Source: Anaerolineales bacterium
Lineage (GTDB): Bacteria; Chloroflexota; Anaerolineae; Anaerolineales; E44-bin32
Direction: 5' to 3'
Assembly (NCBI GenBank): GCA_048054495.1
Contig: JBGMQN010000069.1
Location: 83,444-141,642, forward strand
DNA length: 58,199 nucleotides
In this document: positions 23,303 to 45,581 of the stretch, one piece after another
Layout: each line of letters opens with the position of its first letter
How positions within the stretch are numbered: position 1 is the first letter of the stretch
Made by a program: the position numbers and the translations under genes
Notes under the pieces: model-generated
Databases searched by the model: none
What the model was told of the DNA's origin: nothing
Seen by the model: the letters and a program-made list of their open reading frames with translations, nothing else

Positions 23303-23331
23303 TTGATTGGCTCCATTACAAGTGCTAGAAT
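23303..23331 (+). promoter_or_regulatory. strong sigma70-like promoter in front of hydroxylase module A
   Basis: TTGATT-17 nt-TAGAAT, with TGC immediately 5' of the -10 (extended -10). Roughly 100-nt 5'UTR with a hairpin at 23350-23377. Confidence 0.55.
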
Positions 23332-23434
23332 GACTTAGCCCGATCGGTGGTCGTTCGCAGGGCGGACCTGCGACGGCGTTGAGCATCCTCGCTCATCGAT
23401 AAGTGCCGGCCGGTCCCAAGTACTTCTCAAACAG

Positions 23435-24328
23435 ATGAGCCTTTGGCAGCAGTATCTGCGACCGCAGAGTCTGGCCGATGCATTGGACACATTGGCGGCG
23501 CTCAGTGATTCCGGCGAAGCCGTAGCGGTAGTTGCGGGCGGCACAGACATTCTGCTGGATTTGGATCAGGGCCGACACGCGGCGGTCGAGACTCTGGTCG
23601 ACGTGACGGCCGTAGAGGAGATGCTGGAGATCCGGCAGGTGGACGAGACCATCCATATCGGCGCGGCCGTTCCGCTGCGAGAGGTGATTGACGATGCACT
23701 GGTGCGTGCCAATGCGACCGCCCTTGTAGAGGCGTGCGAACTCATCGGAGGGCCGCAGGTGCGCAATGTCGCGACCTTGGGCGGCAACGTGGCGCACGCA
23801 CTTCCAGCCGCCGATGGAACGATAGCGCTGCTCGCGCTGGGCGCAGAGGCGCAGGTCGCCTCCGCGCAAGGTGCGACCTGGGTCCCAATGGAGGAGCTGT
23901 TTGTCTCTCCCGGTGAGCCCAACTTCGATCGCGCTCACGAGCTGGTAGTGAGATTTCGTTTTCCCGCGTTGCGCGAGGGTGAGGCCTCCGCGTTTCGCCG
24001 TGTCATGCGCCCGCAGGGGGTGGCCATCGCGATCCTGAATATGGCCGTTCGACTGTATCTAGACGAGGGCGGGATCATCCAGGAAGCTCGCCTGGCAATC
24101 GGGCCGGCCGGACCGCGACCGCTGCGTGCTCGGGCGGCGGAGCAGGCCATCGAAGGGAACATGCTCGATGAGGCTGCTTTCTCGGCCGCGCTGAACGCAC
24201 TCAGCGGAGAAGTGAGCCTGCGAACCAGCCCGCACCGTGCCACTGCAGAATACCGGAGCCACCTGCTTGCAAGCCTGCTGCGGCAGACTCTGGAGGCGGC
24301 TTTGTCTCGCGTGGAGCACGCAGTATGA
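23435..24328 (+). CDS. molybdenum hydroxylase module A, FAD-binding subunit (CoxM/XdhB-like)
   Basis: VVAGGTDILLDL and RNVATLGGNVAHA motifs. Confidence 0.85.
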   Translation: MSLWQQYLRPQSLADALDTLAALSDSGEAVAVVAGGTDILLDLDQGRHAAVETLVDVTAVEEMLEIRQVDETIHIGAAVPLREVIDDALVRANATALVEACELIGGPQVRNVATLGGNVAHALPAADGTIALLALGAEAQVASAQGATWVPMEELFVSPGEPNFDRAHELVVRFRFPALREGEASAFRRVMRPQGVAIAILNMAVRLYLDEGGIIQEARLAIGPAGPRPLRARAAEQAIEGNMLDEAAFSAALNALSGEVSLRTSPHRATAEYRSHLLASLLRQTLEAALSRVEHAV

Positions 24329-27129
24329 GCGATCGTAGCCCCGACCCTGAGCCTCAGATGATGGATTTCGAGGTCAATGGCGAGCTGAGGCGCGTGCGTG
24401 CCGGGCCAGGGGAAATGCTTTCCGATGTGCTGCGCTACCAGCTCGAGCTCACGGGCACCAAGATAGGTTGTGGAGAGGCCGAATGCGGCACCTGCACTGT
24501 ATTGGTCGATGGCCATCCGGTGCTGTCGTGTGTCTACCCCGCCATGAAAGCCGCCGGTCGGTCGGTCCGAACCATCGAGGGATTGGCCAAGAACGGCCAC
24601 CTCCATCCACTGCAAGAAGCGTTTGTGAAGTACGGCGCCGTGCAGTGTGGCTTCTGCATCCCGGGCCAGATAATGACCGCCGCGGCACTTCTGGAAACTA
24701 TTCCCGATCCGTCGGAGGCCGAGATCCGCAAGGCGCTCAAGGACACTCTCTGTCGCTGCGCCGGCTATCCCACCATCATTCGGTCCATTCGGGCCGCCGC
24801 GCTCAGCGTGCGAACGGGCGAAGCCATTGCTGAGCCGGATTTGCCAACTGCAGGCGATACGCGTGTCGTGGGGCAGCTCGTTGCACGGCCGGATGCGGTG
24901 GAGAAGGTCGACGGAAGTGCTAAGTTCGCCGACGACTATTCCTTTCCCGGAATGCTCTTTGGGGCCACCCTCAGAGCCGGAAGACCCCATGCGGTGCTGC
25001 GTAGACTCGACATAAGTGCCGCCAGCGAGGCGGAGGGGGTAGTGGCTGTCCTGACTGCAGAGGACATCGAGGGCGAGATCCATCATGGGCTGGTCGTGAA
25101 GGATTGGCCGGCGCTGGTGGGCGTGGATGAGAAGGTTCGCTATGTCGGCGATGCGATCGCATTGGTTGCGGCCGACACGCTTGAGGCGGCTCAGCTTGCG
25201 CTGGATCTCATCGAAGCCGATTACGAGGAACTGCCTGTGGTTTCGGATCCCGTGCAGGCCCGTTCGGCGGATGCGCCGGAAGTACATGAAAGCGGCAACC
25301 TGCTCAAGCACATCAAGGTCCGGAAAGGCGATCTCAAGGCGGGCTTCGAAGAGGCTGACATCATCATAGAAGACACCTACCACACAGCCATCACAGAGCA
25401 CGCCTTCCTCGAACCTGAATGTGCCATTGCGCGACTTACGGATGAGGGACGCCTCGAGGTCTATGTCGGTTCCCAGATCCCGTATGCCGACCGCAGTCAG
25501 ATCGCGCGCTGTCTGGGTATGGCCGATAATGAAGTTAGAGTTATCGGCACGCTCATTGGAGGCGGCTTTGGCGGCAAAGAAGACATCGCGGGCCAGATCC
25601 ACGCCGCGATGCTCGCCAAGGCCACCGGGCGACCCGTCAAAATCCTCTACGACCGGCACGAAAGTCTGCTGGTCCATCCGAAGCGCCACGCCACTCAAAT
25701 TCGTGTGAAGCTGGGTGCGAAGGCAGATGGGACGCTCGTGGCCGCGGAGACCGAGCTCTATGGCGACACCGGCGCTTACGCCTCGCTCGGCGAAAAGGTC
25801 ATGACGCGTGCCACCACTCACTCCGCCGGACCGTACGTCGTCCCGCATGTCAAAGCCGACTGCTACGCGATGTACACCAACAACCCACCCGCGGGAGCGT
25901 TCCGGGGGTTCGGAGTGACACAATCTGCGTTCGCGATCGAGTCCATCATGGATGATCTGGCGAGACAGCTGGGTATGGACCCGATCGAACTGCGATTGAA
26001 AAACGCGCTGGAAGTTGGAACATTGACCAACACCGGGCAGGAGCTGCGGGAGAGCGTCGGACTGGTCGAGTGCATCGAGCGGGTGTCGGCCAGGATGCAC
26101 GAGTTCTCAACAGAACCCTTCGTCTCTAAGACGCCCGAAGGTCAGCCCGGCATACGTCGCGCTTGGGGCCTGGCTGCCGCCTACAAGAACACCGGCCTGG
26201 GGGGTGGAGCTCCAGACAAAGCCTCCGCCGAAGTTGAAATCTATGAGGATGGCACGGCAGAGGTCAGGACCTCTTCGGCTGAGATTGGACAAGGGCTGGT
26301 GGCGGTGCTGCAGATGATCGCAGCGGAGGAGCTCACGCTTCCGCCTGACCGCGTGCGGGTGCTGCTGTCGGACACCGATCTCACGCCAGACGGCGGACCG
26401 ACTACCGCCTCGCGCCAGACCTACGTGACCGGAAATGCAGTTCGCTACGCCACCGATGTCGTCAAACAGGCCATGGCCTCGACCCTGGCGGAGCACTTTG
26501 ATGTCCCTCCGGCGCAAATCAAATTCCACGAAGGTTTGGCACAAGTTAACGGACGCCAGGTTGAGCTCGGCGATGCCGTAGGAATCATGAAGGAAGAAGG
26601 CCGTCAAGCTCGAGCGACCTACGAATATTGGGCACCTACCACGCAGGCGCTGGGTACTGGCGGAGACATGCACTTTGTCTTTTCGTTTGCCGCTCAAGCG
26701 GCGGAGGTTGAAGTGAATCTGGACACCGGTGAGGTGCACGTATTACGCGTGATCGCAGCCAACGACGTAGGCAAGGTGATCAATCCGCTTGGACTCCTGG
26801 GTCAGGTCGAAGGCGGCGTGATGATGGGATTAGGCAATGCCATCACCGAGCATTTCATTGTGGAGCAGGGAAGAGTGATCACCGATCGATTGGCACGATA
26901 TCGTATGCCGGGGATCCTGCATACGCCCGAGATCGTCTCCATCCCGGTCGAGCACCCGGCGGCCGACGGGCCGTACGGAGCGAAGGGGGTGGGCGAGATT
27001 ACGAGCATACCCACAACGCCGGCGATCACCAACGCCATCTACCACGCATGCGGCGTGCGGATCAAACACCTGCCTGTCGATCAAGACTGGCTCGCGCTTG
27101 AACTGGCCGGGCTAAACGGCGGAAGTTAA
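24325..27129 (+). CDS. molybdenum hydroxylase module A, fused [2Fe-2S] + molybdopterin-binding subunit
   Basis: CGEAECGTCTV, CGFCIPG and CRCAGY, followed by GGGFGGKED, AFRGFGVTQ and KGVGE. ATGA overlap with the FAD subunit gene. Confidence 0.9.
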   Translation: MSDRSPDPEPQMMDFEVNGELRRVRAGPGEMLSDVLRYQLELTGTKIGCGEAECGTCTVLVDGHPVLSCVYPAMKAAGRSVRTIEGLAKNGHLHPLQEAFVKYGAVQCGFCIPGQIMTAAALLETIPDPSEAEIRKALKDTLCRCAGYPTIIRSIRAAALSVRTGEAIAEPDLPTAGDTRVVGQLVARPDAVEKVDGSAKFADDYSFPGMLFGATLRAGRPHAVLRRLDISAASEAEGVVAVLTAEDIEGEIHHGLVVKDWPALVGVDEKVRYVGDAIALVAADTLEAAQLALDLIEADYEELPVVSDPVQARSADAPEVHESGNLLKHIKVRKGDLKAGFEEADIIIEDTYHTAITEHAFLEPECAIARLTDEGRLEVYVGSQIPYADRSQIARCLGMADNEVRVIGTLIGGGFGGKEDIAGQIHAAMLAKATGRPVKILYDRHESLLVHPKRHATQIRVKLGAKADGTLVAAETELYGDTGAYASLGEKVMTRATTHSAGPYVVPHVKADCYAMYTNNPPAGAFRGFGVTQSAFAIESIMDDLARQLGMDPIELRLKNALEVGTLTNTGQELRESVGLVECIERVSARMHEFSTEPFVSKTPEGQPGIRRAWGLAAAYKNTGLGGGAPDKASAEVEIYEDGTAEVRTSSAEIGQGLVAVLQMIAAEELTLPPDRVRVLLSDTDLTPDGGPTTASRQTYVTGNAVRYATDVVKQAMASTLAEHFDVPPAQIKFHEGLAQVNGRQVELGDAVGIMKEEGRQARATYEYWAPTTQALGTGGDMHFVFSFAAQAAEVEVNLDTGEVHVLRVIAANDVGKVINPLGLLGQVEGGVMMGLGNAITEHFIVEQGRVITDRLARYRMPGILHTPEIVSIPVEHPAADGPYGAKGVGEITSIPTTPAITNAIYHACGVRIKHLPVDQDWLALELAGLNGGS

Positions 27130-27279
27130 CATAACTGCACATGAGCCAGATAAAGACTGGTGGACGCAGATAAGCAATCAGCCTGGACTGGCTCGGGCTC
27201 AACCTGGCCAGAGCAAGGTCGGAGTATAAACAAGTGAATACAATAGGATAAAGATCGATAGCCGGAGAGAACTTCTGAA

Positions 27280-28641
27280 ATGCTGATCCAGAACGCCAAG
27301 GTCATCACCTGGGGTGAACCCAACCAAATCCTCGAAGATTATGGCTTGTATATCGAGGGCGGTTTGATCCGTGAACTGGGCCCGACCCAGGAACTCGCCG
27401 CCAAGCATGCGGACGAGGAGAGCCTGGATGCCGCAGGCCAATATGTCATGCCGGGCAATATCTGTGCCCACACGCATTTCTACGGTGCATTCGCGCGCGG
27501 TATGGCGATTCCGGGGCGGGCACCGAAGGATTTCCCTGAGATCCTCGAAAGGCTCTGGTGGCCGCTGGACAAGGCCCTGACGGATGAGGATGTTCGCTAT
27601 TCGGCGCTGGTATCAATGGTGGATGCCATCAAGCACGGCACGACCATGCTCATCGACCATCACGCCTCTCCGAATGCCATCGATGGCTCGCTGGACACCA
27701 TCGGCGACGCCGTGGAGCAGGCAGGATTGCGAGCCGTGCTCTGCTATGAAGTCACCGATCGGGATGGGGAGCAAAAGGCTCAGGCCGGGATCGCAGAAAA
27801 CGTGCGCTTCATACGGCGCTGTGATGCGGAGCGGCCTGCCGATGGCAGGCTGGCGGCGAGCTTTGGACTGCATGCAAGCCTGACGCTATCGGACGAGACG
27901 CTGGACGCCTGTGCCGAGCGCGCACCGGCGGGGACCGGCTTCCACATCCACGTGGCAGAGCATGAGGCGGATGAATATGACAGCCAGAACAAGAGCGAGA
28001 TGCGCGTGGTCGACCGCCTGGCAAAGCATGGTATCCTGAGCGAAAGCACGATCGTAGCCCATGCTGTGCACGTAGATACGCGTGAGATTGAAATACTCGC
28101 GGACAGCGGTAGCTGGGTGAGCCATCAGCCGCGATCGAACATGAATAACGCCGTCGGAGTAGCGGAGGTGGAATCGATGATGCGCGCCGGCGTCAATGTT
28201 TGCCTGGGCAACGATGGCTTTTCGAATGCCATGTGGGAAGAGTGGAAGACCGCTTATCTTGTGCACAAGGTGTGGCGGCGAGACCCACGGCGCATGGGCG
28301 GTGGGGACATCATCCAAATGGCCGTGCGCAACAATTCTGCTCTAGCAAGAAAATTCTTTCTAAGCGCGCCGGTCGGAGTGATCGAGCCCGGTGCGCATGC
28401 CGATCTGATCTTTGTCGATTACCATCCCACAACGCCCCTGTCCGCTGATAATCTCCCCTGGCACATCCTGTTCGGCTTTCACGAATCCATGGTCACCACG
28501 ACCCTCGTGGCCGGCAATGTGCTGATGCGGGATCGGGAGCTTCTCACTCTGGACGAGGCGGAGATCACCGCCCACTCTCGGGCACTGGCGCTGGCCGTGT
28601 GGGATCGGTATCAGGGCAACGTACCCATGGAGCATCTATGA
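27280..28641 (+). CDS. ssnA: SsnA-family aminohydrolase
   Basis: Amidohydrolase HTH motif. LWWPLDKALTDED and IDHHASPNAIDGSL closely resemble E. coli SsnA as I recall it. Confidence 0.78.
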   Translation: MLIQNAKVITWGEPNQILEDYGLYIEGGLIRELGPTQELAAKHADEESLDAAGQYVMPGNICAHTHFYGAFARGMAIPGRAPKDFPEILERLWWPLDKALTDEDVRYSALVSMVDAIKHGTTMLIDHHASPNAIDGSLDTIGDAVEQAGLRAVLCYEVTDRDGEQKAQAGIAENVRFIRRCDAERPADGRLAASFGLHASLTLSDETLDACAERAPAGTGFHIHVAEHEADEYDSQNKSEMRVVDRLAKHGILSESTIVAHAVHVDTREIEILADSGSWVSHQPRSNMNNAVGVAEVESMMRAGVNVCLGNDGFSNAMWEEWKTAYLVHKVWRRDPRRMGGGDIIQMAVRNNSALARKFFLSAPVGVIEPGAHADLIFVDYHPTTPLSADNLPWHILFGFHESMVTTTLVAGNVLMRDRELLTLDEAEITAHSRALALAVWDRYQGNVPMEHL

Positions 28642-29312
28642 CCGATCGATTGATCCTGACCCTGGCAATACTTGGCGGAACCGGCAACGAGGGCACCGGA
28701 CTGGCCTACCGCTGGGCCAGGGCCGGCTACCACGTGATCATCGGATCTCGCTCAAGCAAAAAGGCGAAACGCGTCGCAAAAGAGTTGAATGCGCGTCTGG
28801 AACGGGATTTTGTGGAAGGCATGCGAAATGCCGATGCGGCCAGGGCATGCGATATCGCGGTCCTGACCGTCCCGTATCCCGCTCAACGCGACACGTTGGA
28901 AGCGCTGAAGGATGAGCTTTCGGGCAAGCTCTTGGTAGATGTAACTGTGCCGCTGGATGAGGACGAAGCGACGCTGGTGAAGATGCCGCCCGCTGGCAGT
29001 GCGGCGCAGGAAGCGCAAGAAATCCTTGGCGATGAGGTGTCGGTCACCGCTGCATTTCACGTCATTTCTCATACCCATCTTCGTCAAGATGGCCCGATCG
29101 CCAGCGATGTGCTGATCTGTGGGGATAGCGAGGCGGCGAAAGAGCAGACGATGCAGCTGGTTGCGGCGGCCGGGCTGGCCGGCTGGGACGCAGGGGGTCT
29201 GCAAAATGCGGTTGTGGCGGAAGGCCTGGTGCCCGTGCTAATCGGCATCAACAAGCGCTACAAGATCAAATCCGCCGGCATCCGTATTACCGGAGAGCAG
29301 GCGCCGACCTAG
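28638..29312 (+). CDS. fno: NADPH-dependent F420 reductase (F420:NADP oxidoreductase)
   Basis: LAILGGTGNEGTGLAYRWARAGYHVIIGSRS Rossmann N-terminus. Start taken at ATG 28638, which makes an ATGA overlap with the ssnA stop. Confidence 0.8.
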   Translation: MTDRLILTLAILGGTGNEGTGLAYRWARAGYHVIIGSRSSKKAKRVAKELNARLERDFVEGMRNADAARACDIAVLTVPYPAQRDTLEALKDELSGKLLVDVTVPLDEDEATLVKMPPAGSAAQEAQEILGDEVSVTAAFHVISHTHLRQDGPIASDVLICGDSEAAKEQTMQLVAAAGLAGWDAGGLQNAVVAEGLVPVLIGINKRYKIKSAGIRITGEQAPT

Positions 29313-29323
29313 CCACGCTTACA

Positions 29324-30076
29324 ATGCAGATGACCTTAACTGCCCTGCCGGGGATCCCGTTGATCCGACCTGGGGATGACCTGGCAGGGTTGATTCTCGC
29401 CAGCGCCGAAGAGAGCGGAATCGAGCTAGAGACGGGCGATGTGCTGGCCGTGGCACAGAAGGTCGTATCGAAGGCTGAAAACAGGCTGGTGGATCTGGGC
29501 CAGATCCAGCCTTCGAAACCAGCCTTGAAGCTCGCTGAAGAGGCGCGAAAGGATCCCCGATTGGTTGAGGTGATCCTATCTGAATCCAGGGAAGTGCTTC
29601 GCGTACGCCCCGGCCTGGTCATTGTCGAGCACCGCCTGGGATTCGTGTGTGCGAACGCCGGCGTGGATCACTCGAACGTGGAAGGCCATCAGACCGTGCT
29701 GCTGCTGCCGGAGAATCCCGAGCGATCCGCAAGTGAGATCCGGGAGTCTCTCGAGCGCGCGACTGGCGCATCGCTAGGAGTCCTGATCATCGATTCGCAC
29801 GGACGCGCCTGGCGCATGGGAACGGAGGGAGTCGCCATTGGTGTCAGCGGATTTCCGGCCTTGTTGGACCTAAGGGGTACGCCAGACCTGTTCGGTCGTA
29901 CGCTCAAGGTCACACAAGTAGGTCTGGCGGACGAGATGGCGGCGGCGGCCTCGCTCGTGATGGGGCAGGGCGATGAAGAGCGGCCGGTGGTTCACGTGCG
30001 TGGATTTCCTTATCCACTCCGAGAAGGATCCGTCCAGGAGATCTTGAGGCCTAAGGAATTTGACCTCTTTCGATAG
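29324..30076 (+). CDS. cofE: coenzyme F420-0:L-glutamate ligase
   Basis: LPGIPLIRPGDDLAGLI...GDVLAVAQKVVSKAE is a CofE/FbiB-N signature. Confidence 0.85.
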   Translation: MQMTLTALPGIPLIRPGDDLAGLILASAEESGIELETGDVLAVAQKVVSKAENRLVDLGQIQPSKPALKLAEEARKDPRLVEVILSESREVLRVRPGLVIVEHRLGFVCANAGVDHSNVEGHQTVLLLPENPERSASEIRESLERATGASLGVLIIDSHGRAWRMGTEGVAIGVSGFPALLDLRGTPDLFGRTLKVTQVGLADEMAAAASLVMGQGDEERPVVHVRGFPYPLREGSVQEILRPKEFDLFR

Positions 30077-30144: not shown

Positions 30145-30537
30145 ATGTTCCCTGAGAGTCACCTAGATCTGCTGTCAGATGAGAAACGGGCGGCGGCTTA
30201 CCTGGCAACCCTGATGCCGGATGGGAGTCCGCAGGTCACGCCGGTCTGGTTCTCGTATGAAAACAACCGGCTGAGGATCAACACTAACAGGGGCCGAGTG
30301 AAGGAAAAGAATTTATCGGCCCGGCCTCAAGTTGCCCTGGTGATACAGGATCCAAACGACACCTACCGGTTTATTCAGATCCGCGGAGCAGCTGCCAAGC
30401 CGATCGAGGAAGGAGCGGTCGACCATATTGAACGCTTGTCGCAAAAATATCACGGCGTGCCGTTTCGACCGCTGCGTCCGGGCGAAGTGCGAGTGATTTT
30501 CGAGATCGAGCCGTCTTCGATAAGTACAAACGAATGA
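30145..30537 (+). CDS. PPOX-class (pyridoxamine-5'-phosphate-oxidase fold) probable F420-dependent enzyme
   Basis: LATLMPDGSPQVTPVWFSYENNRLRINT...KEKNL...PQVALVI pattern. AGGAG precedes the ATG. Confidence 0.68.
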   Translation: MFPESHLDLLSDEKRAAAYLATLMPDGSPQVTPVWFSYENNRLRINTNRGRVKEKNLSARPQVALVIQDPNDTYRFIQIRGAAAKPIEEGAVDHIERLSQKYHGVPFRPLRPGEVRVIFEIEPSSISTNE

Positions 30538-31148
30538 GTTCGGGTCCTGCGGAATTTGAAGCCCTGGCAAACAGTCGGAAGTCGGTCCGCGAATTCAGCG
30601 ACGCTCCATTGGAGCTCGAGTTGGTGGATCGGCTGTTGTCCACCGCATGCCAGGCACCCTCGGCGCACAATCGTCAGCCCTGGCGGTTTGCCGTGCTCTG
30701 GGAATTTGATGCTCGAGACAAACTGGCGCGCGCGATGGGGGAGAAGCTGCGCGCGGACCGTCTGTCAGACGGCGAAGATCCGCATGAAATTAAGAAGGAC
30801 ATTGAGCGCTCGTGGAATCGGATCACCGGCGCGCCGGTGGCGATACTCGTATGCCTGACCATGGAGGACATGGACAAGTATCCGGATCGGGAGCGCAGAC
30901 GAGCCGAGTTTCGAATGGCCGTGCAAGGAATTGCCATGGCGGGCGAGAATCTACTGCTCGCGGCCCATGCACACGGGCTGGGAGCGTGCTGGATGTGTGC
31001 CCCGCTCTTCGCCCAGGAGGCTGTGATCGCAGCGCTGGACCTTCCGTCTTCCTGGGAACCTCAAGGCCTGGTGCTCCTCGGCTGGCCGGCCGGCCCGGGG
31101 AGGGCGCAAGCGCGGAGGCCGCTGGAGGAAGTAGCGGTCTACCTGTGA
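30534..31148 (+). CDS. nitroreductase-family protein, FbiB C-terminal-domain-like
   Basis: RKSVREF...[12 protein letters not shown] nitroreductase motif. ATGA overlap with the PPOX gene, and located in the cofE/cofD block. Confidence 0.62.
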
Positions 31149-31174: not shown

Positions 31175-32106
<932 letters not shown>

Positions 32107-32110
<4 letters not shown>

Positions 32111-32718
32111 GCCTCTGGGGCATCGTTCCGGTCAAGGCGCTGGATGAAAGCAAGTCTCGTTTGCGAGGCGTGCTGACCCCAGACCAACGCGTGGAGCTCA
32201 GCCGGGAGATGCTGCTTCACACGCTGCAAGTTCTCTTAGAAATCCCCGAGGTGGAGCGGACACTGGTCGTCAGCGCGGATCCGAAGGTATTGGCTTTGGC
32301 TCGAGAGCATGGGGCCGAGGCCCTGGAAGAGCGGGGCTCCCCCGAGCTTAACAAAGCCCTGAGCCAGGCAACGGCGCTCGCGCAGGATTCGAACGCGAAG
32401 GCGGTCTTGGTGCTGCCAGCGGATCTGCCGCTGATTCAGGCAACGGATGTGAGGGCTTTGATTGAGCTGACGCAGGACCCGCCAGTCGTCGTTATCTCAC
32501 CCGATAGGACACACAGCGGGACGAACGCGCTGTTGGTGGCTCCCCTGGGCAAGTTAGAATATGCCTTCGGGCCGGACAGCTACAATCACCACGTCCGACG
32601 AGCAGAGGTTGCTGGGGCTCGAATTGAGATCATTGAGCTCCCGGCGCTTGGCCTGGATTTAGATGCCCCCGAAGACCTCGAAATTTATCGAAATCGCTTT
32701 GCTCTGATAAAGGAGTAG
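32107..32718 (+). CDS. cofC: 2-phospho-L-lactate / PEP guanylyltransferase
   Basis: [18 protein letters not shown]-terminus. Start set to TTG 32107 (TTGA overlap with the cofD stop). The longer ORF from 31978 overlaps cofD. Confidence 0.78.
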
Positions 32719-35045: not shown

Positions 35046-35097
35046 GGCGCACATCCAGGATCATGCTCCGTCATTGCTGCGCGAAGGATTTCCTCCC

Positions 35098-38103: not shown

Positions 38104-38925
38104 CTGTCGACTCATCGGTTTTTCGCCCGAATTGCAGAGCTTCAGGAGGCCGGGAAGCCTGTGGCAGTGGCCACGGTCGTGCACACAACCGGATCGGTCC
38201 CCAGGCACGAAGGGACCCGCATGCTCATCCATCCCGACGGTCAGATCGAGGGAACCGTGGGGGGCGGCCAGCTCGAGGGCCGCGTGATCCAGGCCGCGCT
38301 GGCGGCCCTGGAGGATGGCCTCCCGAAGAACCTGCATTATAAGTTCCGGGATGTTGAGCAGGGTGACGCGGGTGTCTGTGGCGGAGAGATGGAGGTATTC
38401 GTGGAGGCAGTGAGACCCTCACCTACAGTGGTCGTCGTCGGCGGAGGGCATGTCGGAAGCTCCGTCGCCCATCTGGCCCATTGGCTGGGATTTCGCGTCA
38501 TCGTCTCCGATGACCGTCCCGAATTCGCCACGCCGGAGGCGGTGCCCGGGGCAGATGAGTACATCCAGGGGCCGCTGGCTGAATTGCCCGGCAAGATCAC
38601 TATCACTCCCGAAACCTACCTCATGCTGACAACGCGCGGCGTGCCGGTCGATGTGGACGGCCTGCCACTATTGCTGGACAGTGAGGCCGGATATATCGGA
38701 GTGATTGGATCCAAGCGTCGCTGGGATGCCTGCGCGCAGCAGCTGGCCGAGCGAGGGGTCTCGCAAGAGAAGATCGCGCGGGTTGTGTCTCCGATGGGTC
38801 TCGAACTGAACGCCGAAACGCCGGAGGAAATCGCGATCAGTATGCTGGCCCAGATCATCATGCTGCGCAGGGGCGGCAGTGGCGAGCACATGGCGCACAA
38901 GCCCAAGATTCGGAAACAGGCATGA
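38104..38925 (+). CDS. xdhC: XdhC/CoxI-family molybdenum cofactor insertion chaperone
   Basis: The conserved N-terminal helix FFARIAELQEAGKPVAVATVVHTTGSVPR begins upstream of the first canonical start (GTG 38161). CTG 38104 sits 6 nt after GGAGG (38093-38097). C-terminal Rossmann VVVVGGGHVG. Confidence 0.78.
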   Translation: MSTHRFFARIAELQEAGKPVAVATVVHTTGSVPRHEGTRMLIHPDGQIEGTVGGGQLEGRVIQAALAALEDGLPKNLHYKFRDVEQGDAGVCGGEMEVFVEAVRPSPTVVVVGGGHVGSSVAHLAHWLGFRVIVSDDRPEFATPEAVPGADEYIQGPLAELPGKITITPETYLMLTTRGVPVDVDGLPLLLDSEAGYIGVIGSKRRWDACAQQLAERGVSQEKIARVVSPMGLELNAETPEEIAISMLAQIIMLRRGGSGEHMAHKPKIRKQA

Positions 38926-38958: not shown

Positions 38959-40389
38959 ATGTGGGAGCGCTACCATACCGTTCGTTCCGTGGACGAGGCG
39001 GTCGATCTGCTTGCCAAATACGCCGGCTCGGCGCGCATCGTGGCCGGCGCCACGGATTTGATCCTCGAGATTGAGGGCGGCCTGCGGCCGGACCTGCATG
39101 GCCTGATCGATATCACGCGTATCCCAGGGCTGGATCACATCACTCTGGATGACGATGGATGGATTCACCTCGGCCCGCTCGTCACGCACAACCACTGTGC
39201 CGTTTCTGAGCTGATCATTGAGCGCGCCTACGCGCTCGCCCGTGCCTGCTGGGAGGTAGGCGCCCCGCAGATCCGCAATCGGGGCACGGTTGCGGGAAAC
39301 CTGATCACCGCCTCGCCCGCCAACGATTCGATCACTCCGCTTATGGCGCTCGATGCGCAGGTGACTCTTCGATCCACCTCTGACGAGCGCATAGTCCCGC
39401 TGAAGGACTTCTACACCGGCGTACGCCAGACCGTAATGCAGGACGACGAGTTCATGGCCGACATTGCCTTCCCGGCGCCGCCCGAGGGGAGCCCTTCGAC
39501 GTTCATCAAGCTGGGTTTGCGCCGTGCCCAGGCCATCTCCATCGTCAATATCGCCGCGGTGCTTGAGATGCAAGACGCCCAGGTAGTGGAGGCCTCCATC
39601 GCGTTGGGTTCGGTGAAACCGACGATCGTGCGAGCGGAAGCGGCGGAGGATTACTTGCGAGGTAAAGCGCTCGACGACGAGACCATCCGGCGGGCGAGCG
39701 AACTGGCGGTCGAGGCCGCCTCCCCGATCGACGACGTCCGAGCTTCTGCACGCTACCGAGCGGAGATGGTGCGCGTCTGCACTCGTCGGGCATTGCAGAG
39801 CCTGGCGGACGGAACGGAGCGCGCCGACTATCCCGAGGCTCCCGTCACCCTCTGGGGGCCGGAAGAGCGGCACTGGTCGCGGGAGCTCACCGAGTCGACC
39901 GTACATCCCGGGACGATCGAAACCGTGATCAATGGCCGCCCCTATCAATTCGAATCGGGTTCGGGGAAAACGTTGCTCCGGTTGCTGAGAGAAGAAGGGA
40001 GTCTCACGGGTACTAAGGAGGGCTGTGCGGAGGGTGAGTGTGGGGCTTGCACCGTCGACCTGGACGGCATGGCAGTCATGGCCTGCATGGTCCCTGCTCC
40101 CCGGGCTCACGGCGCCGAGATCCGCACCGTAGAGGGTCTGTCAAGTGATGGCGCGCTGCACCCCATTCAACGGGGATTCATCGAGGCGGGTGCGGTCCAG
40201 TGCGGGTATTGCACTCCGGGATTCCTGATGTCGGGTGCCATGCTGTTGGAGGAGCGTCCCGATCCGGATACTAAGGAGATACGCCAATCCATCACCGGCA
40301 ATCTGTGCCGCTGTACCGGGTATTATTCGATTGTGAGCGCATTCGAACGCGCGGCCGAGCTCAGTAGGGATAGTTCTAATTTGCCGTAG
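38959..40389 (+). CDS. molybdenum hydroxylase module C, fused FAD-binding + [2Fe-2S] subunit
   Basis: IVAGATDLILEI and RNRGTVAGNLITASPANDS in the FAD part. From about nt 39913: CAEGECGACTV, CGYCTPG and CRCTGY. Confidence 0.87.
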   Translation: MWERYHTVRSVDEAVDLLAKYAGSARIVAGATDLILEIEGGLRPDLHGLIDITRIPGLDHITLDDDGWIHLGPLVTHNHCAVSELIIERAYALARACWEVGAPQIRNRGTVAGNLITASPANDSITPLMALDAQVTLRSTSDERIVPLKDFYTGVRQTVMQDDEFMADIAFPAPPEGSPSTFIKLGLRRAQAISIVNIAAVLEMQDAQVVEASIALGSVKPTIVRAEAAEDYLRGKALDDETIRRASELAVEAASPIDDVRASARYRAEMVRVCTRRALQSLADGTERADYPEAPVTLWGPEERHWSRELTESTVHPGTIETVINGRPYQFESGSGKTLLRLLREEGSLTGTKEGCAEGECGACTVDLDGMAVMACMVPAPRAHGAEIRTVEGLSSDGALHPIQRGFIEAGAVQCGYCTPGFLMSGAMLLEERPDPDTKEIRQSITGNLCRCTGYYSIVSAFERAAELSRDSSNLP

Positions 40390-40487
40390 ACGGCGGAAAA
40401 GGCCGCAAATAGAGTGGGAGCTGCCCGGTCGTTCCTTTGCGCATAGCCAATTGCGGTGGACGCGGGCGGACATCAGGTAGTACGAGA

Positions 40488-40589
40488 GACCGTGAAGGTT
40501 TGGGACAGAAGGAGGAGGCAGGACCGCGATGTTTTGGGATAGAAGAAAGACGTAGGACCGCGAAGGTTTGTGGCAGGAGGAGATCGAGA
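40488..40589. repeat. three tandem imperfect 34-nt repeats
   Basis: GACCGTGAAGGTTTGGGACAGAAGGAGGAGGCAG / GACCGCGATGTTTTGGGATAGAAGAAAGACGTAG / GACCGCGAAGGTTTGTGGCAGGAGGAGATCGAGA. About 24-26 of 34 positions are identical pairwise. Confidence 0.75.
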
Positions 40590-40672
40590 CTCGTCTTGCG
40601 GCGGTCGATGGGGATCGAGGCAGGAAATCAATTTGGCTAGTGAGGTTGGGCACCACAGGATGGGAGGGACAC

Positions 40673-41053
40673 ATGGGTAGAAGAAGCTCATGGCAGTTCC
40701 AGCAACACGAACGAGAACGCAAGGAAGCCAAGAAGATGAACCCGGTATGGCGCGGGGTCGGCTGCCTGCTTGTCGTGGCGATCGGTGCGCTGGGATTCCT
40801 GTTCGCGAATTGGTTCCTGGTTCAGAATGCAATCAACGGCTGGATCTACCTCCCGCCCGAGGTGATCAATCCAAATGTACGCGGGATCGGCAGTTTCCTC
40901 GCGGGCGGCAATCTGGTTCGTTTCGTGGTAGCTCTGACGTTTCTGCTGTTCGCATTTGCTTTCGTGAATTTCTTGTACGCCATCTTCTTTCCTGTGCAGC
41001 CCGGAGAGTACGACCTCCCCACGCCCAAGCGCCGGCGAAAACCTCGCCGATAG
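40673..41053 (+). CDS. small two-TM membrane protein (hypothetical)
   Basis: GGGAGGG lies 4 nt before ATG 40673; ATG 40736 is an alternative start. Two hydrophobic helices and a basic tail KRRRKPRR. No family recognised. Confidence 0.45.
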   Translation: MGRRSSWQFQQHERERKEAKKMNPVWRGVGCLLVVAIGALGFLFANWFLVQNAINGWIYLPPEVINPNVRGIGSFLAGGNLVRFVVALTFLLFAFAFVNFLYAIFFPVQPGEYDLPTPKRRRKPRR

Positions 41054-41098
41054 CGCGGTTTACATAACCTAGAGTTCAGAAAGCCGGAGGACACACAC

Positions 41099-43303
41099 TT
41101 GATCGGTGAATCAGTTTCGCGCGTCGATGCGCTCGGCAAGGTGACGGGGGAAGCGCTGTTCCCGGGCGATATCGACATGCCTAATCAGGCCTACATGAAG
41201 ATCCTTTTCGCGGCCCGCCCCCACGCCATCATTCGTCGGCTCGATCCCTCGGCCGCGGAAGCGGTTCCCGGCGTGCTGGGCGTGTTCACGGCGAAGGACG
41301 TTCCGGTCAATGAGTACGGAATGCTCCTGAATGATCAGCCCGTTTTGTGCGGCCCCGGCTCCAGCAAGCCGTACGCGGAGCGGGTGCGCTTCATCGGGGA
41401 CCAGGTGGCGCTTGTTGTGGCGGAGAGCGAGCAGATCGCAGCGGAGGCGACGAAGTTGATCGAGGTCGAATTTGAAGACCTGGCAGTAATTACCGATCCT
41501 GAGCAAGCCATGCAGCAAGGGGCCCCGCTGCTTCATCCGGATCGAGAGAGCAACATTTTCCAACACAATCGCATTCGGAAGGGGGATGTCGAGGCGGGGT
41601 TTGCCGAAGCGGCGGTAGTGATCGAGAGCGAATATCGCACTCCAGCTCAAGAGCATGCCTATCTCCAACCGGAGGCCGGACTGGCTTATATCGATGATGA
41701 AGGCCGGGTGACGGTCCAGATAGCTGGCCAGTGGACCCATGAGGATCAGGAGGAGATCGCACACGCGCTGGATTTACCCGTGGACAAGGTCCGCGTGAGA
41801 TACGCCGCGGTCGGCGGCGCGTTCGGCGGCCGGGAAGACATGTCGGTGCAGATCGTGCTGGCACTGGCGGCGTGGCGGCTGCACGAGCGGGGGATCGATC
41901 GACCGGTCAAGATCATCTGGTCGCGCGAGGAATCCATCTACGGCCACCACAAGCGGCATCCTTTTGTTCTGCGTTCCAAATGGGGAGTGAGCGCGGAAGG
42001 CAAGTTGCTGGCGGCGGAAGTGCAGGTCATCCAGGACGGTGGAGCCTATGCTAGCACTTCGACCAAGGTGCTGGGTAACGCAACGCTGATGTGTACCGGC
42101 CCCTACCGTGTCCCCAACGTGAAGGTAGATGCCTACTCGGTCTATACCAACCACATCCCGGGCGGAGCCTTTCGCGGCTTCGGGGGGCCGCAGGCGGCGT
42201 TCTCGGCCGAGATGCAAATGGAGAAGCTGGCGGTCGCGCTGGGCATGGACCCGGTTGAACTGCGCGCCCGAAATGTACTAAAGGAAGGCGATTTGCTCTC
42301 CGTCGGATCGCCGCTTCCCGAGGGCGTGACATTGGATCGGGTGATTGAAAGCTGCGCGGAGAATGCGGGGTGGGGTAGAACCAACGACGGCTGGGTCGCC
42401 CCCGATGTGGAGCAACCAGTTGAGCCCCACCTACGCCGAGGGATCGGCGTAGCGTGCGGCTTCAAGAACGTGGGCTTCTCGTTCGGCTTCCCGGAGCAAT
42501 GCTGGGCGACGGTTGAGCTTCATGGAGGTGAAGAGATTGAAGAAGTTGTCCTTCGCCACGCCGGCGCCGAGGTCGGACAGGGGGCTCACACGGCCCTGGT
42601 GCAGATGGCGGCCGAGGCGGTAGGGGTGCCGCTTGGGAAGGTGCGGCTCGACCCATCGGACACAGCCACCAGCGAAAACTCCGGCTCATCCTCTGCATCC
42701 AGAATGACCTTTATGGCGGGCCATGCCATACGCGGCGCAGTAGAAGCGGCGATGGTGAAGTGGCAGGATGAGGATCGCCCGGCCATCGCCAAATATCAGT
42801 ATCGGCCGCCTCCCACCACGCCATTCGATCCCGAGACGGGCCAAACTGAACCCAATTTTGCCTATGGCTACGTAGCTGAAGCGGCAACGGTCGAAGTCGA
42901 CACGGAGACGGGCGCGGTGCGCATTCTGGACGTCGTCTGCGCAGACGACGTCGGGCGAGTGGTCAATCCACAGGGCGTACGCGGACAGATCGAGGGCGGC
43001 GTCGTACAGGCGGCTGGCTATGCGATTTTGGAGGACTTTCGTCAAGAGGGCGGCGAAGTCCAGACCGGGCTCTTTTCGACCTACCTCATCCCAGGTATCG
43101 GGGACATCCCCGAGCGCGTGAAATCCGTCATATTGGAATACGAAGATCCCGGGGGCCCCTGGGGCGTGCGCGGAATGGCCGAAATGCCTTTCATACCGCT
43201 GACGCCTGCGGTTGTGGCCGCCGTGCACAATGCCACGGGCGTCTGGTTCGATGAGTTCCCGCTCACTCCGGAGCGGGTGCTGTGGGGCATCCGGGGAGAT
43301 TGA
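41099..43303 (+). CDS. molybdenum hydroxylase module C, molybdopterin-binding large subunit (most XDH-like)
   Basis: TTG start with GGAGG 8 nt upstream. IGESVSRVDALGKVTGEA, GGAFGGRED, AFRGFGGPQ and RGMAE motifs. Confidence 0.9.
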   Translation: MIGESVSRVDALGKVTGEALFPGDIDMPNQAYMKILFAARPHAIIRRLDPSAAEAVPGVLGVFTAKDVPVNEYGMLLNDQPVLCGPGSSKPYAERVRFIGDQVALVVAESEQIAAEATKLIEVEFEDLAVITDPEQAMQQGAPLLHPDRESNIFQHNRIRKGDVEAGFAEAAVVIESEYRTPAQEHAYLQPEAGLAYIDDEGRVTVQIAGQWTHEDQEEIAHALDLPVDKVRVRYAAVGGAFGGREDMSVQIVLALAAWRLHERGIDRPVKIIWSREESIYGHHKRHPFVLRSKWGVSAEGKLLAAEVQVIQDGGAYASTSTKVLGNATLMCTGPYRVPNVKVDAYSVYTNHIPGGAFRGFGGPQAAFSAEMQMEKLAVALGMDPVELRARNVLKEGDLLSVGSPLPEGVTLDRVIESCAENAGWGRTNDGWVAPDVEQPVEPHLRRGIGVACGFKNVGFSFGFPEQCWATVELHGGEEIEEVVLRHAGAEVGQGAHTALVQMAAEAVGVPLGKVRLDPSDTATSENSGSSSASRMTFMAGHAIRGAVEAAMVKWQDEDRPAIAKYQYRPPPTTPFDPETGQTEPNFAYGYVAEAATVEVDTETGAVRILDVVCADDVGRVVNPQGVRGQIEGGVVQAAGYAILEDFRQEGGEVQTGLFSTYLIPGIGDIPERVKSVILEYEDPGGPWGVRGMAEMPFIPLTPAVVAAVHNATGVWFDEFPLTPERVLWGIRGD

Positions 43304-43390
43304 AATCGCGCCACCGCCACTAGGCCAGGGTGGTAGAGGGCCCACCGCTCTCGCCGAACCGATAAGCAAGTCGCAGCCCAGTGGGAATCC

Positions 43391-44218
43391 ATGACCCATC
43401 TAGCACCTCTGATCCTTCTACGCGGCGGGGGTGATCTCGCCACCGGAGTTGCTGCACGTCTCTGGCGCGGCGGCTTCGGAGTCGTGGTCACCGAGACCGA
43501 GCAGCCGAGAGCGGTGCGACGACTGGTTTCACTGGCTGAAGCGGTCTACGCGGGATCGGTCGCCGTCGAGGATCTGCGCGGGGAGCGGGTTAGCGACGCC
43601 GCGCAAGCGTCCGCCGTGCTCCATCGGAGCGCGATCCCCGTCCTGGTCGATCCAACCGCAGCGATTCGGAATGATCTGGAACCTGCGGCCTTGGTGGATG
43701 CGCGCATGACGAAAGCGGAACCCGATCTAGATCTTAGTGCCGCGCCTTTCGTGGTCGGCCTTGGCCCAGGCTTTACGGTCGGATTCCACGCGCATGCCGT
43801 TGTTGAGACCAATCGCGGCCATCGCATGGGAAGAGTCTATTGGGAGGGCGCCGCGCAACCGGACACCGGCATTCCCGATTCGGTTCATGGGCATGATGCT
43901 GACCGGGTGCTGCGTGCCCCCGCAGACGGGGTGTTTGAGCCGGCAGCTGAAATCGGCACCCTGGTGAAATCCGGTGAGGTTCTTGCTCAAGTCGATGGCG
44001 TCGCGATCGTTGCCGCCTTCGATGGAGCACTGCGTGGCTTGCTCCACGGCGGTATTGAGGTCGAGGCAGGCGTCAAGGTGGGGGATCTCGATCCGCGACA
44101 GGATCTAGGCTTGTGCAGCTTGATCTCCGATAAATCGCTGGCGGTCGGAGGCGGCGTACTGGAGGCGCTGCTCAGCCAACGCACCATCCGAAAGCAGCTG
44201 GCTGCCTCTTCCAATTAA
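43391..44218 (+). CDS. YqeB/EF2563-family selenium-dependent molybdenum hydroxylase system protein
   Basis: LILLRGGGDLATGVAARLWRGGFGVVVTETEQPRAVRRLVSLAEAVYAGSV matches my recollection of the EF2563/YqeB C-terminal family (TIGR03309). Confidence 0.72.
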   Translation: MTHLAPLILLRGGGDLATGVAARLWRGGFGVVVTETEQPRAVRRLVSLAEAVYAGSVAVEDLRGERVSDAAQASAVLHRSAIPVLVDPTAAIRNDLEPAALVDARMTKAEPDLDLSAAPFVVGLGPGFTVGFHAHAVVETNRGHRMGRVYWEGAAQPDTGIPDSVHGHDADRVLRAPADGVFEPAAEIGTLVKSGEVLAQVDGVAIVAAFDGALRGLLHGGIEVEAGVKVGDLDPRQDLGLCSLISDKSLAVGGGVLEALLSQRTIRKQLAASSN

Positions 44219-44237
44219 AGAGAGCTAGCCCTATGGC

Positions 44238-45581
44238 ATGCAGCTAAGTAGAGCGCTCCGTATCGTGCCGGGTCTTGCGGTTGCCTTTACGGGAGCCGGC
44301 GGCAAGACGAGCGCCATCCGCCGGATGGCGCAGGAGATCGCGCAAACCTCCGATAGTGAGCCCAACTCCCTTGTCATTACGACCACCACTCGGCTCGGGC
44401 ACAACCAGCGTGATCTGGGCAATCATCATCTCGTCGATCCCACCCAAGATCAGATTACTGCATTGCCCGACCTGCTAGCGGAGCACGGGTCGGTGCTCGT
44501 TACCGGCCCGGCGGTGGAGGACAAGTGGAGCTCACCCTCAGATTCCACGTTGGAACAGCTTCACCACCTCGCATCGGAAAACGGATCGGTACTGCTTATC
44601 GAGGCCGATGGCGCCCAGGGGCGCAGCCTGAAGGCGCCTGCCGAACACGAGCCGGCCATCCCGAAGTTTGTGGATCTGGTTGTCCCGATGGCCGGCCTGG
44701 ATGCCCTGGGTCAGGCGATCGAGTCTGAGGTCGTGCACCGACCGGAGTTCGTCGCGGCCGTGCTGGATACGCCGCAGGAAGCCGAGGTCGGGCCGGTCGA
44801 GCTGGCGGCCGTGCTTGCCGCGGAGCAGGGTGGATTGAAAGGGGTACCGGACGGCGCGGAAGTCCGGGTGCTGCTCAACAAGGCCGAGGGCTCCGCCATG
44901 GAACCTGGGCGTCAGATCGCGCAGGCCTTGTTAGGAACCGGTCGAATCCAGTCGGTCGCGCTGGCTTCCGTACTTGAAGAGGATCCAGTGCGGGAGGTGC
45001 GCGGGCGCGTGGCGGGAGTGGTGCTTGCCGCCGGCGGCTCTTCGCGGTTGGGTGAGCCGAAGCAGCTGATCCAGTGGCGAGGCCACCCGTTGGTCTGGCA
45101 CGCGGTACGCGCAGGCGTGGAAGGCGGCCTGGGCCCAGTCGTCGTGGTCGTCGGCGAAACGGCGGACGGACTGCGTCAAGTGCTGGCGGGCGAAGCGATC
45201 GACATTATTGAAAACCCGGATTGGAGAGCGGGTCAGAGCGGCTCAGTCCGGCTTGGACTTGAGGCGGCATCGGAAGGAACGGAGGGGGTCGTGTTCCTGC
45301 TGGCCGATTTGCCCTTCGTGGGGCCGGATCTGGTCAGCGCCCTGATTGAGCGTCACCGCCAGACGCTGGCGCCATTGGTCGCAACCTGGGCCGGAGGGCG
45401 AAGGGCCAATCCAGTGCTGTTCGACCGGAAGACCTATTCCGATCTCCAATCGCTCAGCGGCGACCAGGGGGGAAGGGCAATCTTCCGGCGATTTGAACCT
45501 GAATTTGTGGAATGGGACGACTCGATATTGCTGGACGTGGACACGCCTGAGGACCTTGAGCGGCTGCGCCAGCTAGAATGA
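44238..45581 (+). CDS. fusion of a YqeC-family accessory protein with MocA-like molybdenum cofactor cytidylyltransferase
   Basis: N-terminal half has AVAFTGAGGKTSAIRRMA (YqeC-like P-loop). From about aa 257 (nt ~45006): GVVLAAGGSSRLGEPKQL (MobA/MocA NTP-transferase). Confidence 0.75.
   Translation: MQLSRALRIVPGLAVAFTGAGGKTSAIRRMAQEIAQTSDSEPNSLVITTTTRLGHNQRDLGNHHLVDPTQDQITALPDLLAEHGSVLVTGPAVEDKWSSPSDSTLEQLHHLASENGSVLLIEADGAQGRSLKAPAEHEPAIPKFVDLVVPMAGLDALGQAIESEVVHRPEFVAAVLDTPQEAEVGPVELAAVLAAEQGGLKGVPDGAEVRVLLNKAEGSAMEPGRQIAQALLGTGRIQSVALASVLEEDPVREVRGRVAGVVLAAGGSSRLGEPKQLIQWRGHPLVWHAVRAGVEGGLGPVVVVVGETADGLRQVLAGEAIDIIENPDWRAGQSGSVRLGLEAASEGTEGVVFLLADLPFVGPDLVSALIERHRQTLAPLVATWAGGRRANPVLFDRKTYSDLQSLSGDQGGRAIFRRFEPEFVEWDDSILLDVDTPEDLERLRQLE

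Follow-up and report, generated by a model that had tools for sequence, protein, structure and literature searches.

An F420 gene block linked to ssnA in Anaerolineales and its candidate F420H2-dependent 2,8-dioxopurine reductase

Introduction

Anaerolineales are among the most abundant bacteria of digesters, sediments and activated sludge. In a stretch of 58,199 nucleotides from one of them (GenBank assembly GCA_048054495.1, contig JBGMQN010000069.1, positions 83,444 to 141,642; the window throughout this text), genes resembling those of anaerobic urate breakdown, including the amidohydrolase gene ssnA, run together with genes for the tail of cofactor F420, an NADPH:F420 oxidoreductase (Fno) and an LLM-class enzyme. 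Which enzyme reduces the purine ring in this organism, and does F420 take part? We address this question for the block at window positions 23435-45581 on the + strand. For this block an original prediction had placed the F420 system in the position of the ring reductase YgfK as the source of hydride. The evidence collected here fits this core proposal, and the LLM-class enzyme is most likely an F420H2-dependent 2,8-dioxopurine reductase that would act in YgfK's stead and be fed by Fno.

Two studies of 2025 solved the reductive pathway of E. coli and Clostridium (Li et al., PMC12507026; Liu et al., bioRxiv 10.1101/2025.04.24.650524). In its first step XdhD-YgfM (DOPDH in Clostridium) converts urate to 2,8-dioxopurine, the 'yanthine' route. 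In the second, 2,8-dioxopurine is dearomatised with NAD(P)H by YgfK, an NAD(P)H/FAD/Fe-S/FMN enzyme; Clostridium difficile employs UacX. SsnA then opens the ring, and reduction was seen only if coupled to SsnA. The later steps to pyruvate are attributed to HyuA, YgeW/YqeA or UacY, YgeY and YgeX, and the molybdenum (Mo) enzymes of the pathway depend on the YqeB/YqeC/SelD selenium trait. YgfK, still the presumed reductase in the original prediction, is thus established as a 2,8-dioxopurine reductase. Given this role, 2,8-dioxopurine is the substrate to propose, in place of the xanthine and urate named before.

Moreover, the variant is not undescribed, as had been assumed. Li et al. (2025, PMC12507026) reported Chloroflexota SsnA neighbourhoods in which a PF00296 'putative F420-dependent reductase' replaces YgfK/UacX, and named a putative F420-dependent yanthine reductase in their discussion. 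Their basis is an SsnA sequence-similarity network, given as one sentence and a coloured network, i.e. a neighbourhood inference with no assay; neither Fno nor cofE is mentioned. The central idea is therefore already in print. A review of F420 (PMC8498797) never mentions purine, xanthine or uric and, by its account, experimental work on F420-dependent enzymes of Chloroflexota is entirely lacking. A full-text literature search found no further papers tying F420 to the anaerobic urate pathway.

Results

Gene content of the block

Gene names were assigned from the open reading frame (ORF) layout together with NCBIfam and Pfam profile scans. These back all gene annotations of the original prediction, three Mo-hydroxylase modules (A, B and C) included, and the profile searches that it had suggested (TIGR03314, TIGR03309, TIGR03172, TIGR03618 and PF00296) each found their gene. 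The ORF count is 19 rather than 21, two of the ORFs being domain fusions (FAD+2Fe-2S and YqeC+MocA), and the run of same-strand genes begins at base 66 of the window rather than at 23303. The genes of the block are as follows (profile scores in bits, against the family cut-off).

23435-24328, +, module A FAD subunit, XdhB-like (2e-54)
24325-27129, +, module A 2Fe-2S + Mo subunit (TIGR03311, 796, just under the cut-off of 830)
27280-28641, +, SsnA amidohydrolase (NF005540, 536 vs 444; TIGR03314, 503 vs 455)
28638-29312, +, Fno, NADPH:F420 oxidoreductase (TIGR01915, 207 vs 150)
29324-30076, +, CofE, F420-0:glutamate ligase (TIGR01916, 282 vs 181)
30145-30537, +, PPOX-class F420-dependent oxidoreductase, Rv1155 family (TIGR03618, 98 vs 79)
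30534-31148, +, stand-alone FbiB-C-like nitroreductase (PF00881; best match TIGR03553, 137, below 250)
31175-32110, +, CofD (FbiA) (TIGR01819, 312 vs 257)
32107-32718, +, CofC (FbiD) (TIGR03552, 167 vs 105)
32723-33724, +, LLM-class enzyme with Mer-like fold (PF00296, 1.5e-66)
33740-34222, +, 4HBT hotdog-fold protein, 'thioesterase' (PF03061)
34284-35045, +, module B FAD subunit, YgfM-like (best NCBIfam match TIGR03312, weak)
35074-38088, +, module B 2Fe-2S + Mo subunit, XdhD-like, 1004 amino acids (best window match of E. coli XdhD)
38161-38925, +, XdhC-family Mo-cofactor insertion chaperone (family assignment)
38959-40389, +, module C fused FAD + 2Fe-2S subunit (family assignment)
40568-41053, +, conserved hypothetical ORF, 161 amino acids (no family match)
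41099-43303, +, module C Mo subunit, PucD-like (TIGR03196, 606, below the cut-off of 784)
43391-44218, +, YqeB, selenium-dependent Mo-cofactor maturation (TIGR03309, 307 vs 220)
44238-45581, +, YqeC-MocA fusion (TIGR03172, 150 vs 73; TIGR03310, 136, below 186)

The genes are tightly packed, much as had been described. Four start/stop overlaps are real (ATGA at 24325, 28638 and 30534, TTGA at 32107), the end of ssnA reaches into the start of fno, and the gaps from the LLM gene to the 'thioesterase' and from there to module B measure 15 and 61 nucleotides. Only 4 nucleotides separate cofC from the LLM gene. Sixteen of the 18 intergenic gaps are shorter than 90 nucleotides; the two wider ones lie before ssnA (150 nucleotides) and before the ORF at 40568 (178 nucleotides).

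A step without a gene of the known kind

Among the three Mo-hydroxylase modules, E. coli XdhD matches module B far better (523 bits) than module A (272) or C (223). An insertion of about 11 residues that holds XdhD Glu606 is common to module B and all its orthologues, and is absent from E. coli XdhA and from modules A and C. We propose that module B is an XdhD/YgfM-type enzyme that would convert urate to 2,8-dioxopurine. Module A resembles the selenium-dependent XDH family and is probably a hypoxanthine/xanthine hydroxylase. The window SsnA is 36% identical to E. coli SsnA; its putative role, ring opening of the reduced 2,8-dioxopurine, is taken over from Li et al. (2025, PMC12507026).

The original prediction had noted that no ygfK-like gene is present in the window. 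This was confirmed by tblastn, which found no homologue of YgfK or YgfT in the window (E <= 1e-5), nor any in the surroundings of ssnA (up to 10 kb away) in 80 related genomes (E <= 1e-8). No DHO_dh-type (PydA-like) family, to which UacX would belong, occurs among the annotations of the block and its flanks, with no search aimed at UacX itself. With module B taken as the XdhD counterpart, the YgfK step is the sole core step of the pathway for which no gene is found here.

Alternatively, the Mo-hydroxylase modules could pass electrons to F420 or take them from it, the LLM enzyme standing outside ring reduction. The acceptor version was part of the original prediction and found no support in this analysis, and we regard the reading as a whole as highly improbable. 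A shared carrier would be tidy, in that the oxidations from hypoxanthine to urate should balance the two later reductions in electrons, and in the 2025 literature the clostridial 2,8-dioxopurine dehydrogenase has no established physiological partner. However, the FAD subunits of modules A, B and C are all ordinary FAD_binding_5 proteins of the NAD(P)/XDH type, the YgfK step would stay unfilled, and the conservation of the LLM enzyme (below) would be left unexplained. F420 is not known to serve any molybdenum hydroxylase. The E. coli XdhD-YgfM enzyme works with NADH (PMC12507026).

Conservation of the ssnA-F420-LLM unit

Relatives of the window SsnA with 67-94% identity were collected from 80 species-level genomes, almost all of them metagenome-assembled genomes of Anaerolineales or other Chloroflexota; counts given as fractions refer to the loci that extend far enough to be informative. 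The prediction withstands the test that had been set beforehand on linkage in orthologous genomes, for the ssnA-fno-cof-LLM arrangement is kept in nearly all of the 80 loci. ssnA is followed by fno in 76 of 77 loci, which all come from different Anaerolineales species and include SsnA identities as low as 67%; for an LLM gene downstream of ssnA the count is 49 of 52. Loci are usually arranged as ssnA-fno-cofE-(ppox)-nitroreductase-cofD-cofC-LLM. Two complete metagenome-assembled chromosomes (CP070708.1 and CP070639.1) are among those with the cluster. Only one locus (L068) has no F420 genes, and there the classical ygeY-ygeW-yqeA-ssnA layout is found. The flanks vary: 29 of 49 loci have module B downstream of the LLM gene, 18 of 60 have module A upstream of ssnA, and 14 of 60 have a hydantoinase gene no more than 10 kb upstream of ssnA, mostly adjacent or one gene off; one or the other of module A and hydantoinase precedes ssnA in 28 of 60.

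The linkage of ssnA with the F420 genes is not due to chance. An unrelated F420 operon that merely lies in a purine cluster, with no functional link to it, is extremely improbable. Cofactor operons can hitch-hike in genomes, and promoter and terminator scans cannot fix transcription units. Yet the ssnA stop overlaps the fno start, the gap between cofC and the LLM gene is minimal, the arrangement persists in 76 of 77 loci while the flanks vary, and the lone exception has the classical layout.

Concerning the single proteins, the LLM enzyme has the highest median identity to its window counterpart (83%), followed by the module B Mo subunit and the hydantoinase (72% each) and SsnA (70%); the cof genes reach 51-63%, Fno 55% and PPOX 52%. 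PPOX was found in no more than 49 loci and is lacking in many that retain all else. Because of this low count we regard it as accessory and dispensable. This bears on the second F420-dependent candidate for the ring reduction, PPOX itself (30145-30537), with the LLM enzyme left for another step, e.g. regeneration of F420H2 from some donor. Its score above the TIGR03618 cut-off, its place inside the block and the ability of PPOX/FDOR-B enzymes to reduce conjugated heterocycles with F420H2 (review PMC8498797) speak for it. As PPOX is, however, often lost where the rest is kept, is among the less conserved proteins, and is absent from the distant LLM loci L090 and L093 (below), we consider this reading very unlikely.

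Further observations concern the surroundings of these genes. By eye, Fno identity to the window protein falls into two apparent groups, about 40-50% and about 54-68%, while the neighbouring genes show a continuous spread; a second Fno type may thus have replaced the first in some lineages. A 216-residue Nudix hydrolase is encoded directly upstream of ssnA in 28 related loci (e.g. L006 805-1455), sometimes with a PTP-like phosphatase; the equivalent position of the window (27130-27279) is only the 150-nucleotide gap. Some loci have a 2H-phosphoesterase or pyrophosphatase-like gene within the F420 block. The 4HBT gene lies between the LLM gene and module B in 33 loci, with a 30%-identical copy in the distant locus L089; no CoA thioester occurs in the known urate pathway. 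Behind the FAD/Fe-S gene, L014 and L024 have homologues (44-46% identity) of the 161-residue ORF at 40568-41053, and L095 has a weak match; the ORF is probably a real gene. One contig, L019 (JAIWHF010000079.1), filed under 'Methanosarcinales archaeon', carries ssnA, F420 genes, LLM gene and module B of the Anaerolineales type (SsnA 70% identical); it is probably mis-binned.

The LLM-class enzyme

In a sequence search of the PDB, the nine best matches of the LLM protein (32723-33724) are all F420 enzymes: Mer leads with 2e-40, Fgd and Adf come next, and the E-values of the nine extend to 4e-12, whereas FMN enzymes follow at 1e-8 or weaker. A model with a pLDDT of 95.2 was obtained by AlphaFold from a deeper alignment; it replaced a model with a pLDDT of 59 from a shallow alignment restricted to homologues of at least 85% identity. 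It superposes on jMer with bound F420 (PDB 8QPL) with a TM-score of 0.89, and the top 30 Foldseek matches are all F420 enzymes. Sequence and model thus suggest an F420 enzyme, of a TIM-barrel LLM fold nearer to F420 than to FMN enzymes.

A true Mer was tested as an identity and rejected. The protein misses the cut-offs of both Mer models (174 vs 276 and 167 vs 349), and the position of jMer Glu6, the catalytic Glu of Mer and MTHFR at the end of strand beta-1 (PMC11094777), is an invariant Tyr8. Opposite jMer Asp96 stands a Trp that is part of an AWW[D/E]P motif. After clustering at 50% the family stands isolated, its nearest full-length representatives being 43-51% identical. An aromatic-rich signature (Y8, W68, AWW[D/E]P, N183-Y184, Y240) is common to this 43-51% clade and absent from more distant LLM proteins. 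The family is labelled '5,10-methylenetetrahydromethanopterin reductase' (mer) by JGI, likely a systematic mis-annotation in Anaerolineae metagenomes.

Distant relatives in other gene contexts

LLM relatives at 45-47% identity adjoin genes for SsnA-like amidohydrolases in L090, L093 and L086, in differing gene orders; XDH-family genes stand beside the LLM gene in two of these three contexts, in one of them together with YqeB/YqeC. L090-L092 (21 contigs) encode a GntR regulator, the LLM enzyme, an SsnA-like protein (SsnA as its best-matching family, short of the cut-off), a three-subunit XDH, a hydantoinase, an M20 peptidase and a thrC-like pyridoxal-phosphate (PLP) enzyme, with no cof genes nearby. 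In L093/L094, from a cluster of 280 members, the LLM gene and an amidohydrolase gene overlap at stop and start, and genes for a YgfM-like FAD subunit, an XdhD-like Fe-S + Mo subunit, an SsnA-like amidohydrolase, XdhC, YqeB and YqeC follow. L086 has a hydantoinase, the LLM enzyme and an SsnA-like gene. PPOX is absent from L090 and L093, which do have the LLM gene. Because the pairing of LLM enzyme, SsnA-like amidohydrolase and Mo-hydroxylase recurs in differing gene orders, it speaks for a functional link between them and against mere inheritance of gene order.

Other relatives keep the order fno-cofE-nitroreductase-cofD-cofC-LLM: L083 and L095 (LLM 51% identical) and L089 (46%). L095 also has a YqeC-MocA fusion. 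In these three loci the LLM gene is always followed by a gene for a protein of 818-821 residues (L083 1891-4356, L089 11002-13458, L095 11043-13508). A hidden Mo enzyme was considered for it and set aside, given that its sequence resembles that of a polytopic membrane protein, no family matches it and the window has no counterpart.

These contexts bear on a further reading: the ssnA-fno-cof-LLM unit may act on another N-heterocycle (a pterin, a purine isomer or a pyrimidine derivative), or the LLM enzyme may be a Mer/MTHFR-like one-carbon enzyme whose adjacency to XDH genes was inherited. Methylenetetrahydromethanopterin reductases are the closest solved relatives, JGI uses the Mer name for the family, and FolD is encoded in the wider neighbourhood of L089 and L114. 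The very high LLM conservation would suit central metabolism, SsnA is merely 36% identical to the E. coli enzyme, and 14 of 43 loci have neither XDH nor hydantoinase genes nearby. We nevertheless consider this reading unlikely: the Mer cut-offs are widely missed, the catalytic Glu is an invariant Tyr in the LLM clade, SsnA passes both curated SsnA cut-offs, and inherited synteny does not explain why LLM genes pair with SsnA-like genes in varied orders.

Supply of F420

Three tail genes of the block (cofC, cofD and cofE) and the nitroreductase gene fit the phosphoenolpyruvate/dehydro-F420-0 route, the nitroreductase being the presumed dehydro-F420-0 reductase, a role inferred for it. CofC, CofD, the nitroreductase and CofE would put the tail on the precursor FO. 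For FO synthase itself (CofG/H, FbiC), no unannotated ORF of more than 250 residues with a CxxxCxxC radical-SAM motif was found within 10 kb of ssnA in the 80 loci, in a weak screen of these loci's unannotated ORFs that left out the window ORFs. FO would therefore come from genes elsewhere or from outside the cell.

Genes flanking the block

The hydantoinase and carbamate kinase genes both lie in the window, yet outside the block. The genes upstream of the block likewise bear on purine breakdown and include the following.

66-1013, +, carbamate kinase, YqeA-like (NCBIfam, 409 vs 266; 51% identity to E. coli YqeA)
1103-6173, +, BMP-family ABC transporter: binding protein, ATPase and two permeases (family assignments)
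6246-8015, +, adenine deaminase (TIGR01178, 494 vs 472.5)
8063-9310, +, threonine-synthase-like PLP enzyme (PF00291, 4.6e-80)
9515-10483, GT2 glycosyltransferase
10486-11946, +, CysK-like PLP enzyme, 486 amino acids (PF00291; syntenic with the hydantoinase)
12046-12573, small uncharacterised protein
15248-16669, +, hydantoinase/dihydropyrimidinase in the HyuA role (TIGR02033, 506 vs 393; 38% identity to E. coli HyuA)

The BMP transporter is syntenic with carbamate kinase in many metagenome loci and likely serves the uptake of purines or nucleosides. Carbamoyltransferase, carbamate kinase, transporter, deaminase and hydantoinase genes all keep synteny with the island. The two PLP enzymes may be replacements for YgeX. 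The threonine-synthase-like enzyme at 8063-9310, which has a 30%-identical homologue in the LLM/SsnA-like cluster of L090, may take over from YgeX as the C-N lyase of the final step. Just off the window start, a carbamoyltransferase gene stands immediately upstream, as seen in a 99%-identical metagenome contig (L096, 1-918). Relatives have two carbamoyltransferase genes before carbamate kinase (e.g. L114 7993-9966), one aspartate-carbamoyltransferase-like and one similar to ornithine carbamoyltransferase or YgeW; in L114 the latter stays below the YgeW cut-off (192 vs 453) and comes closer to ornithine carbamoyltransferase. YgeY occurs in one (L142) of 53 larger metagenome loci (at least 6 kb), YgeX in none. 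Given the carbamoyltransferase pair and the near-absence of YgeY, phosphorolysis of both ureido groups is conceivable, and it might yield two ATP.

Other features of the flanks stand apart. The unit of thrC-like, GT2, CysK-like and small-protein genes lies between carbamate kinase and hydantoinase in about 25 loci, and the GT2 and small-protein genes also precede fno in L089. Genes for HtrA, a RibD_C-like pyrimidine reductase, a phosphoketolase and acetate kinase (16818-22935) are inserted between hydantoinase and module A, an insertion limited to the window and its closest relative L001. Downstream of the block, sugar catabolism genes follow on the opposite strand.

Signals around the block

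The promoter-like TTGATT-17-TAGAAT at 23303-23331 on the + strand exists as predicted, with 9 of 12 consensus positions plus a TG extension, but it is a candidate promoter only, for such matches are no commoner in the window than in shuffled sequence (3 found vs 5.0 expected). No terminator-like site on the + strand falls inside any intergenic gap, and scans for internal promoters or terminators that would split the block gave nothing over the shuffled expectation; scans of this kind are unable to establish transcription units. The hairpin at 45603-45635 between the convergent genes is real, with a perfect 14-bp stem (-30.5 kcal/mol for 45585-45650), but lacks a U-tract. A search of the whole window with Rfam gave no match of any kind, purine and molybdenum cofactor riboswitches included.

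Discussion

Gene identities, the lack of YgfK in the window and around ssnA in the 80 loci, the conservation of the unit and the fold of the LLM enzyme were established in this study. On these grounds we consider it rather probable that the block is the core of an Anaerolineales purine/urate island which follows the reductive 2,8-dioxopurine pathway as known, except that another enzyme reduces the ring. Purines would be brought to urate by adenine deaminase and the Mo-hydroxylase modules A and C. Module B, selenium-dependent as judged by YqeB and YqeC-MocA, would strip the 6-oxo group of urate to give 2,8-dioxopurine. Fno would regenerate F420H2 from NADPH, and the LLM enzyme would move a hydride from F420H2 to 2,8-dioxopurine, probably at C6. 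Hydrolytic ring opening by SsnA to ureidomethyl-hydantoin would pull the unfavourable reduction forward. The end steps would fall to the hydantoinase, the carbamoyltransferase(s) with carbamate kinase and the PLP enzymes, with formation of ATP. Fno, F420 and the LLM enzyme would thus form a two-enzyme system with a diffusible cofactor in place of YgfK.

Several points weigh against this assignment. The substrate of the LLM enzyme is deduced from gene neighbourhood only, and the use of F420, the electron flow and co-transcription of the block are likewise inferred. Module B scores 669 on the XdhD-type model TIGR03313, below the cut-off of 1102. The search for YgfK covers the window and the surroundings of ssnA, and a ygfK gene may lie elsewhere in the genome. 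YgeY has no match in the window, and YgeX a single one of 44 bits, to the PLP gene at 8063-9310. In 14 of the 43 loci informative on both flanks, the ssnA-F420-LLM unit stands without XDH-family or hydantoinase genes in the covered DNA. No SsnA is encoded near the fno-cof-LLM unit in L083, L089 and L095; L089 has an 8-oxoguanine deaminase in SsnA's stead, together with Nudix, 4HBT, XdhC and an XDH FAD/Fe-S subunit. With no FO synthase candidate near ssnA in the 80 loci screened, production of F420 is unproven.

In a wider form of this reading, F420 of Anaerolineales would be largely dedicated to one catabolic pathway. A single transcript would join its tail genes and fno to ssnA and to the gene of a new, tightly conserved LLM family, the latter a dearomatising F420H2:2,8-dioxopurine reductase unrelated to YgfK/UacX; downstream, two carbamoyltransferases would feed carbamate kinase, and PLP lyases would stand for YgeY/YgeX. 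We give this combined claim an even chance. If true, it would be the first defined physiological role of F420 in Chloroflexota and in anaerobic purine catabolism, and a third, non-homologous answer to the hardest step of anaerobic urate breakdown. The cluster offers a concrete, testable role for F420, namely that of hydride donor for purine dearomatisation. An LLM family without Fe-S clusters could also appeal for urate-degrading probiotics, provided that the host makes or receives F420. Furthermore, the Mer label widely carried by this family in metagenomes can mislead inferences on one-carbon metabolism or methanogenesis.

Comparison with known systems

The locus shares with the E. coli/Clostridium cluster SsnA, a putative XdhD/YgfM-type pair of Fe-S + Mo and FAD subunits, a HyuA-type hydantoinase, carbamate kinase beside carbamoyltransferase, the maturation genes XdhC, YqeB, YqeC and MocA, extra XDH modules and purine deaminases. 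It differs in having the LLM enzyme with Fno and F420-tail genes where YgfK/UacX stands there, two fold-type-II PLP enzymes with no YgeY/YgeX in the window, and a hotdog-fold protein between the LLM enzyme and module B; moreover, relatives of the window carry two non-YgeW carbamoyltransferases. Mer (jMer) has the same TIM-barrel LLM fold and is the closest solved relative of the LLM enzyme, at 29-30% identity. It is itself an F420H2 hydride transferase acting on a fused N-heterocycle, although in methanogenesis, whereas the LLM context is purine catabolism in a bacterium. As in bacterial F420 operons (Bashiri et al. 2019, PMC6450877), CofC, CofD and CofE occur with a stand-alone FbiB-C-like nitroreductase; unlike there, the cofactor genes are enclosed by catabolic genes, with the amidohydrolase gene on one side and that of its presumed partner reductase on the other.

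The 'Chloroflexota variant' of Li et al. is the same system as the block of the window. Beyond that description, this study adds the Fno and cof genes embedded between ssnA and the LLM gene, i.e. the means of making and recharging the cofactor, and their near-universal conservation. It also adds the clade-specific aromatic signature of an LLM enzyme that is not Mer, the occurrence of this enzyme in other lineages, and a different predicted downstream half of the pathway.

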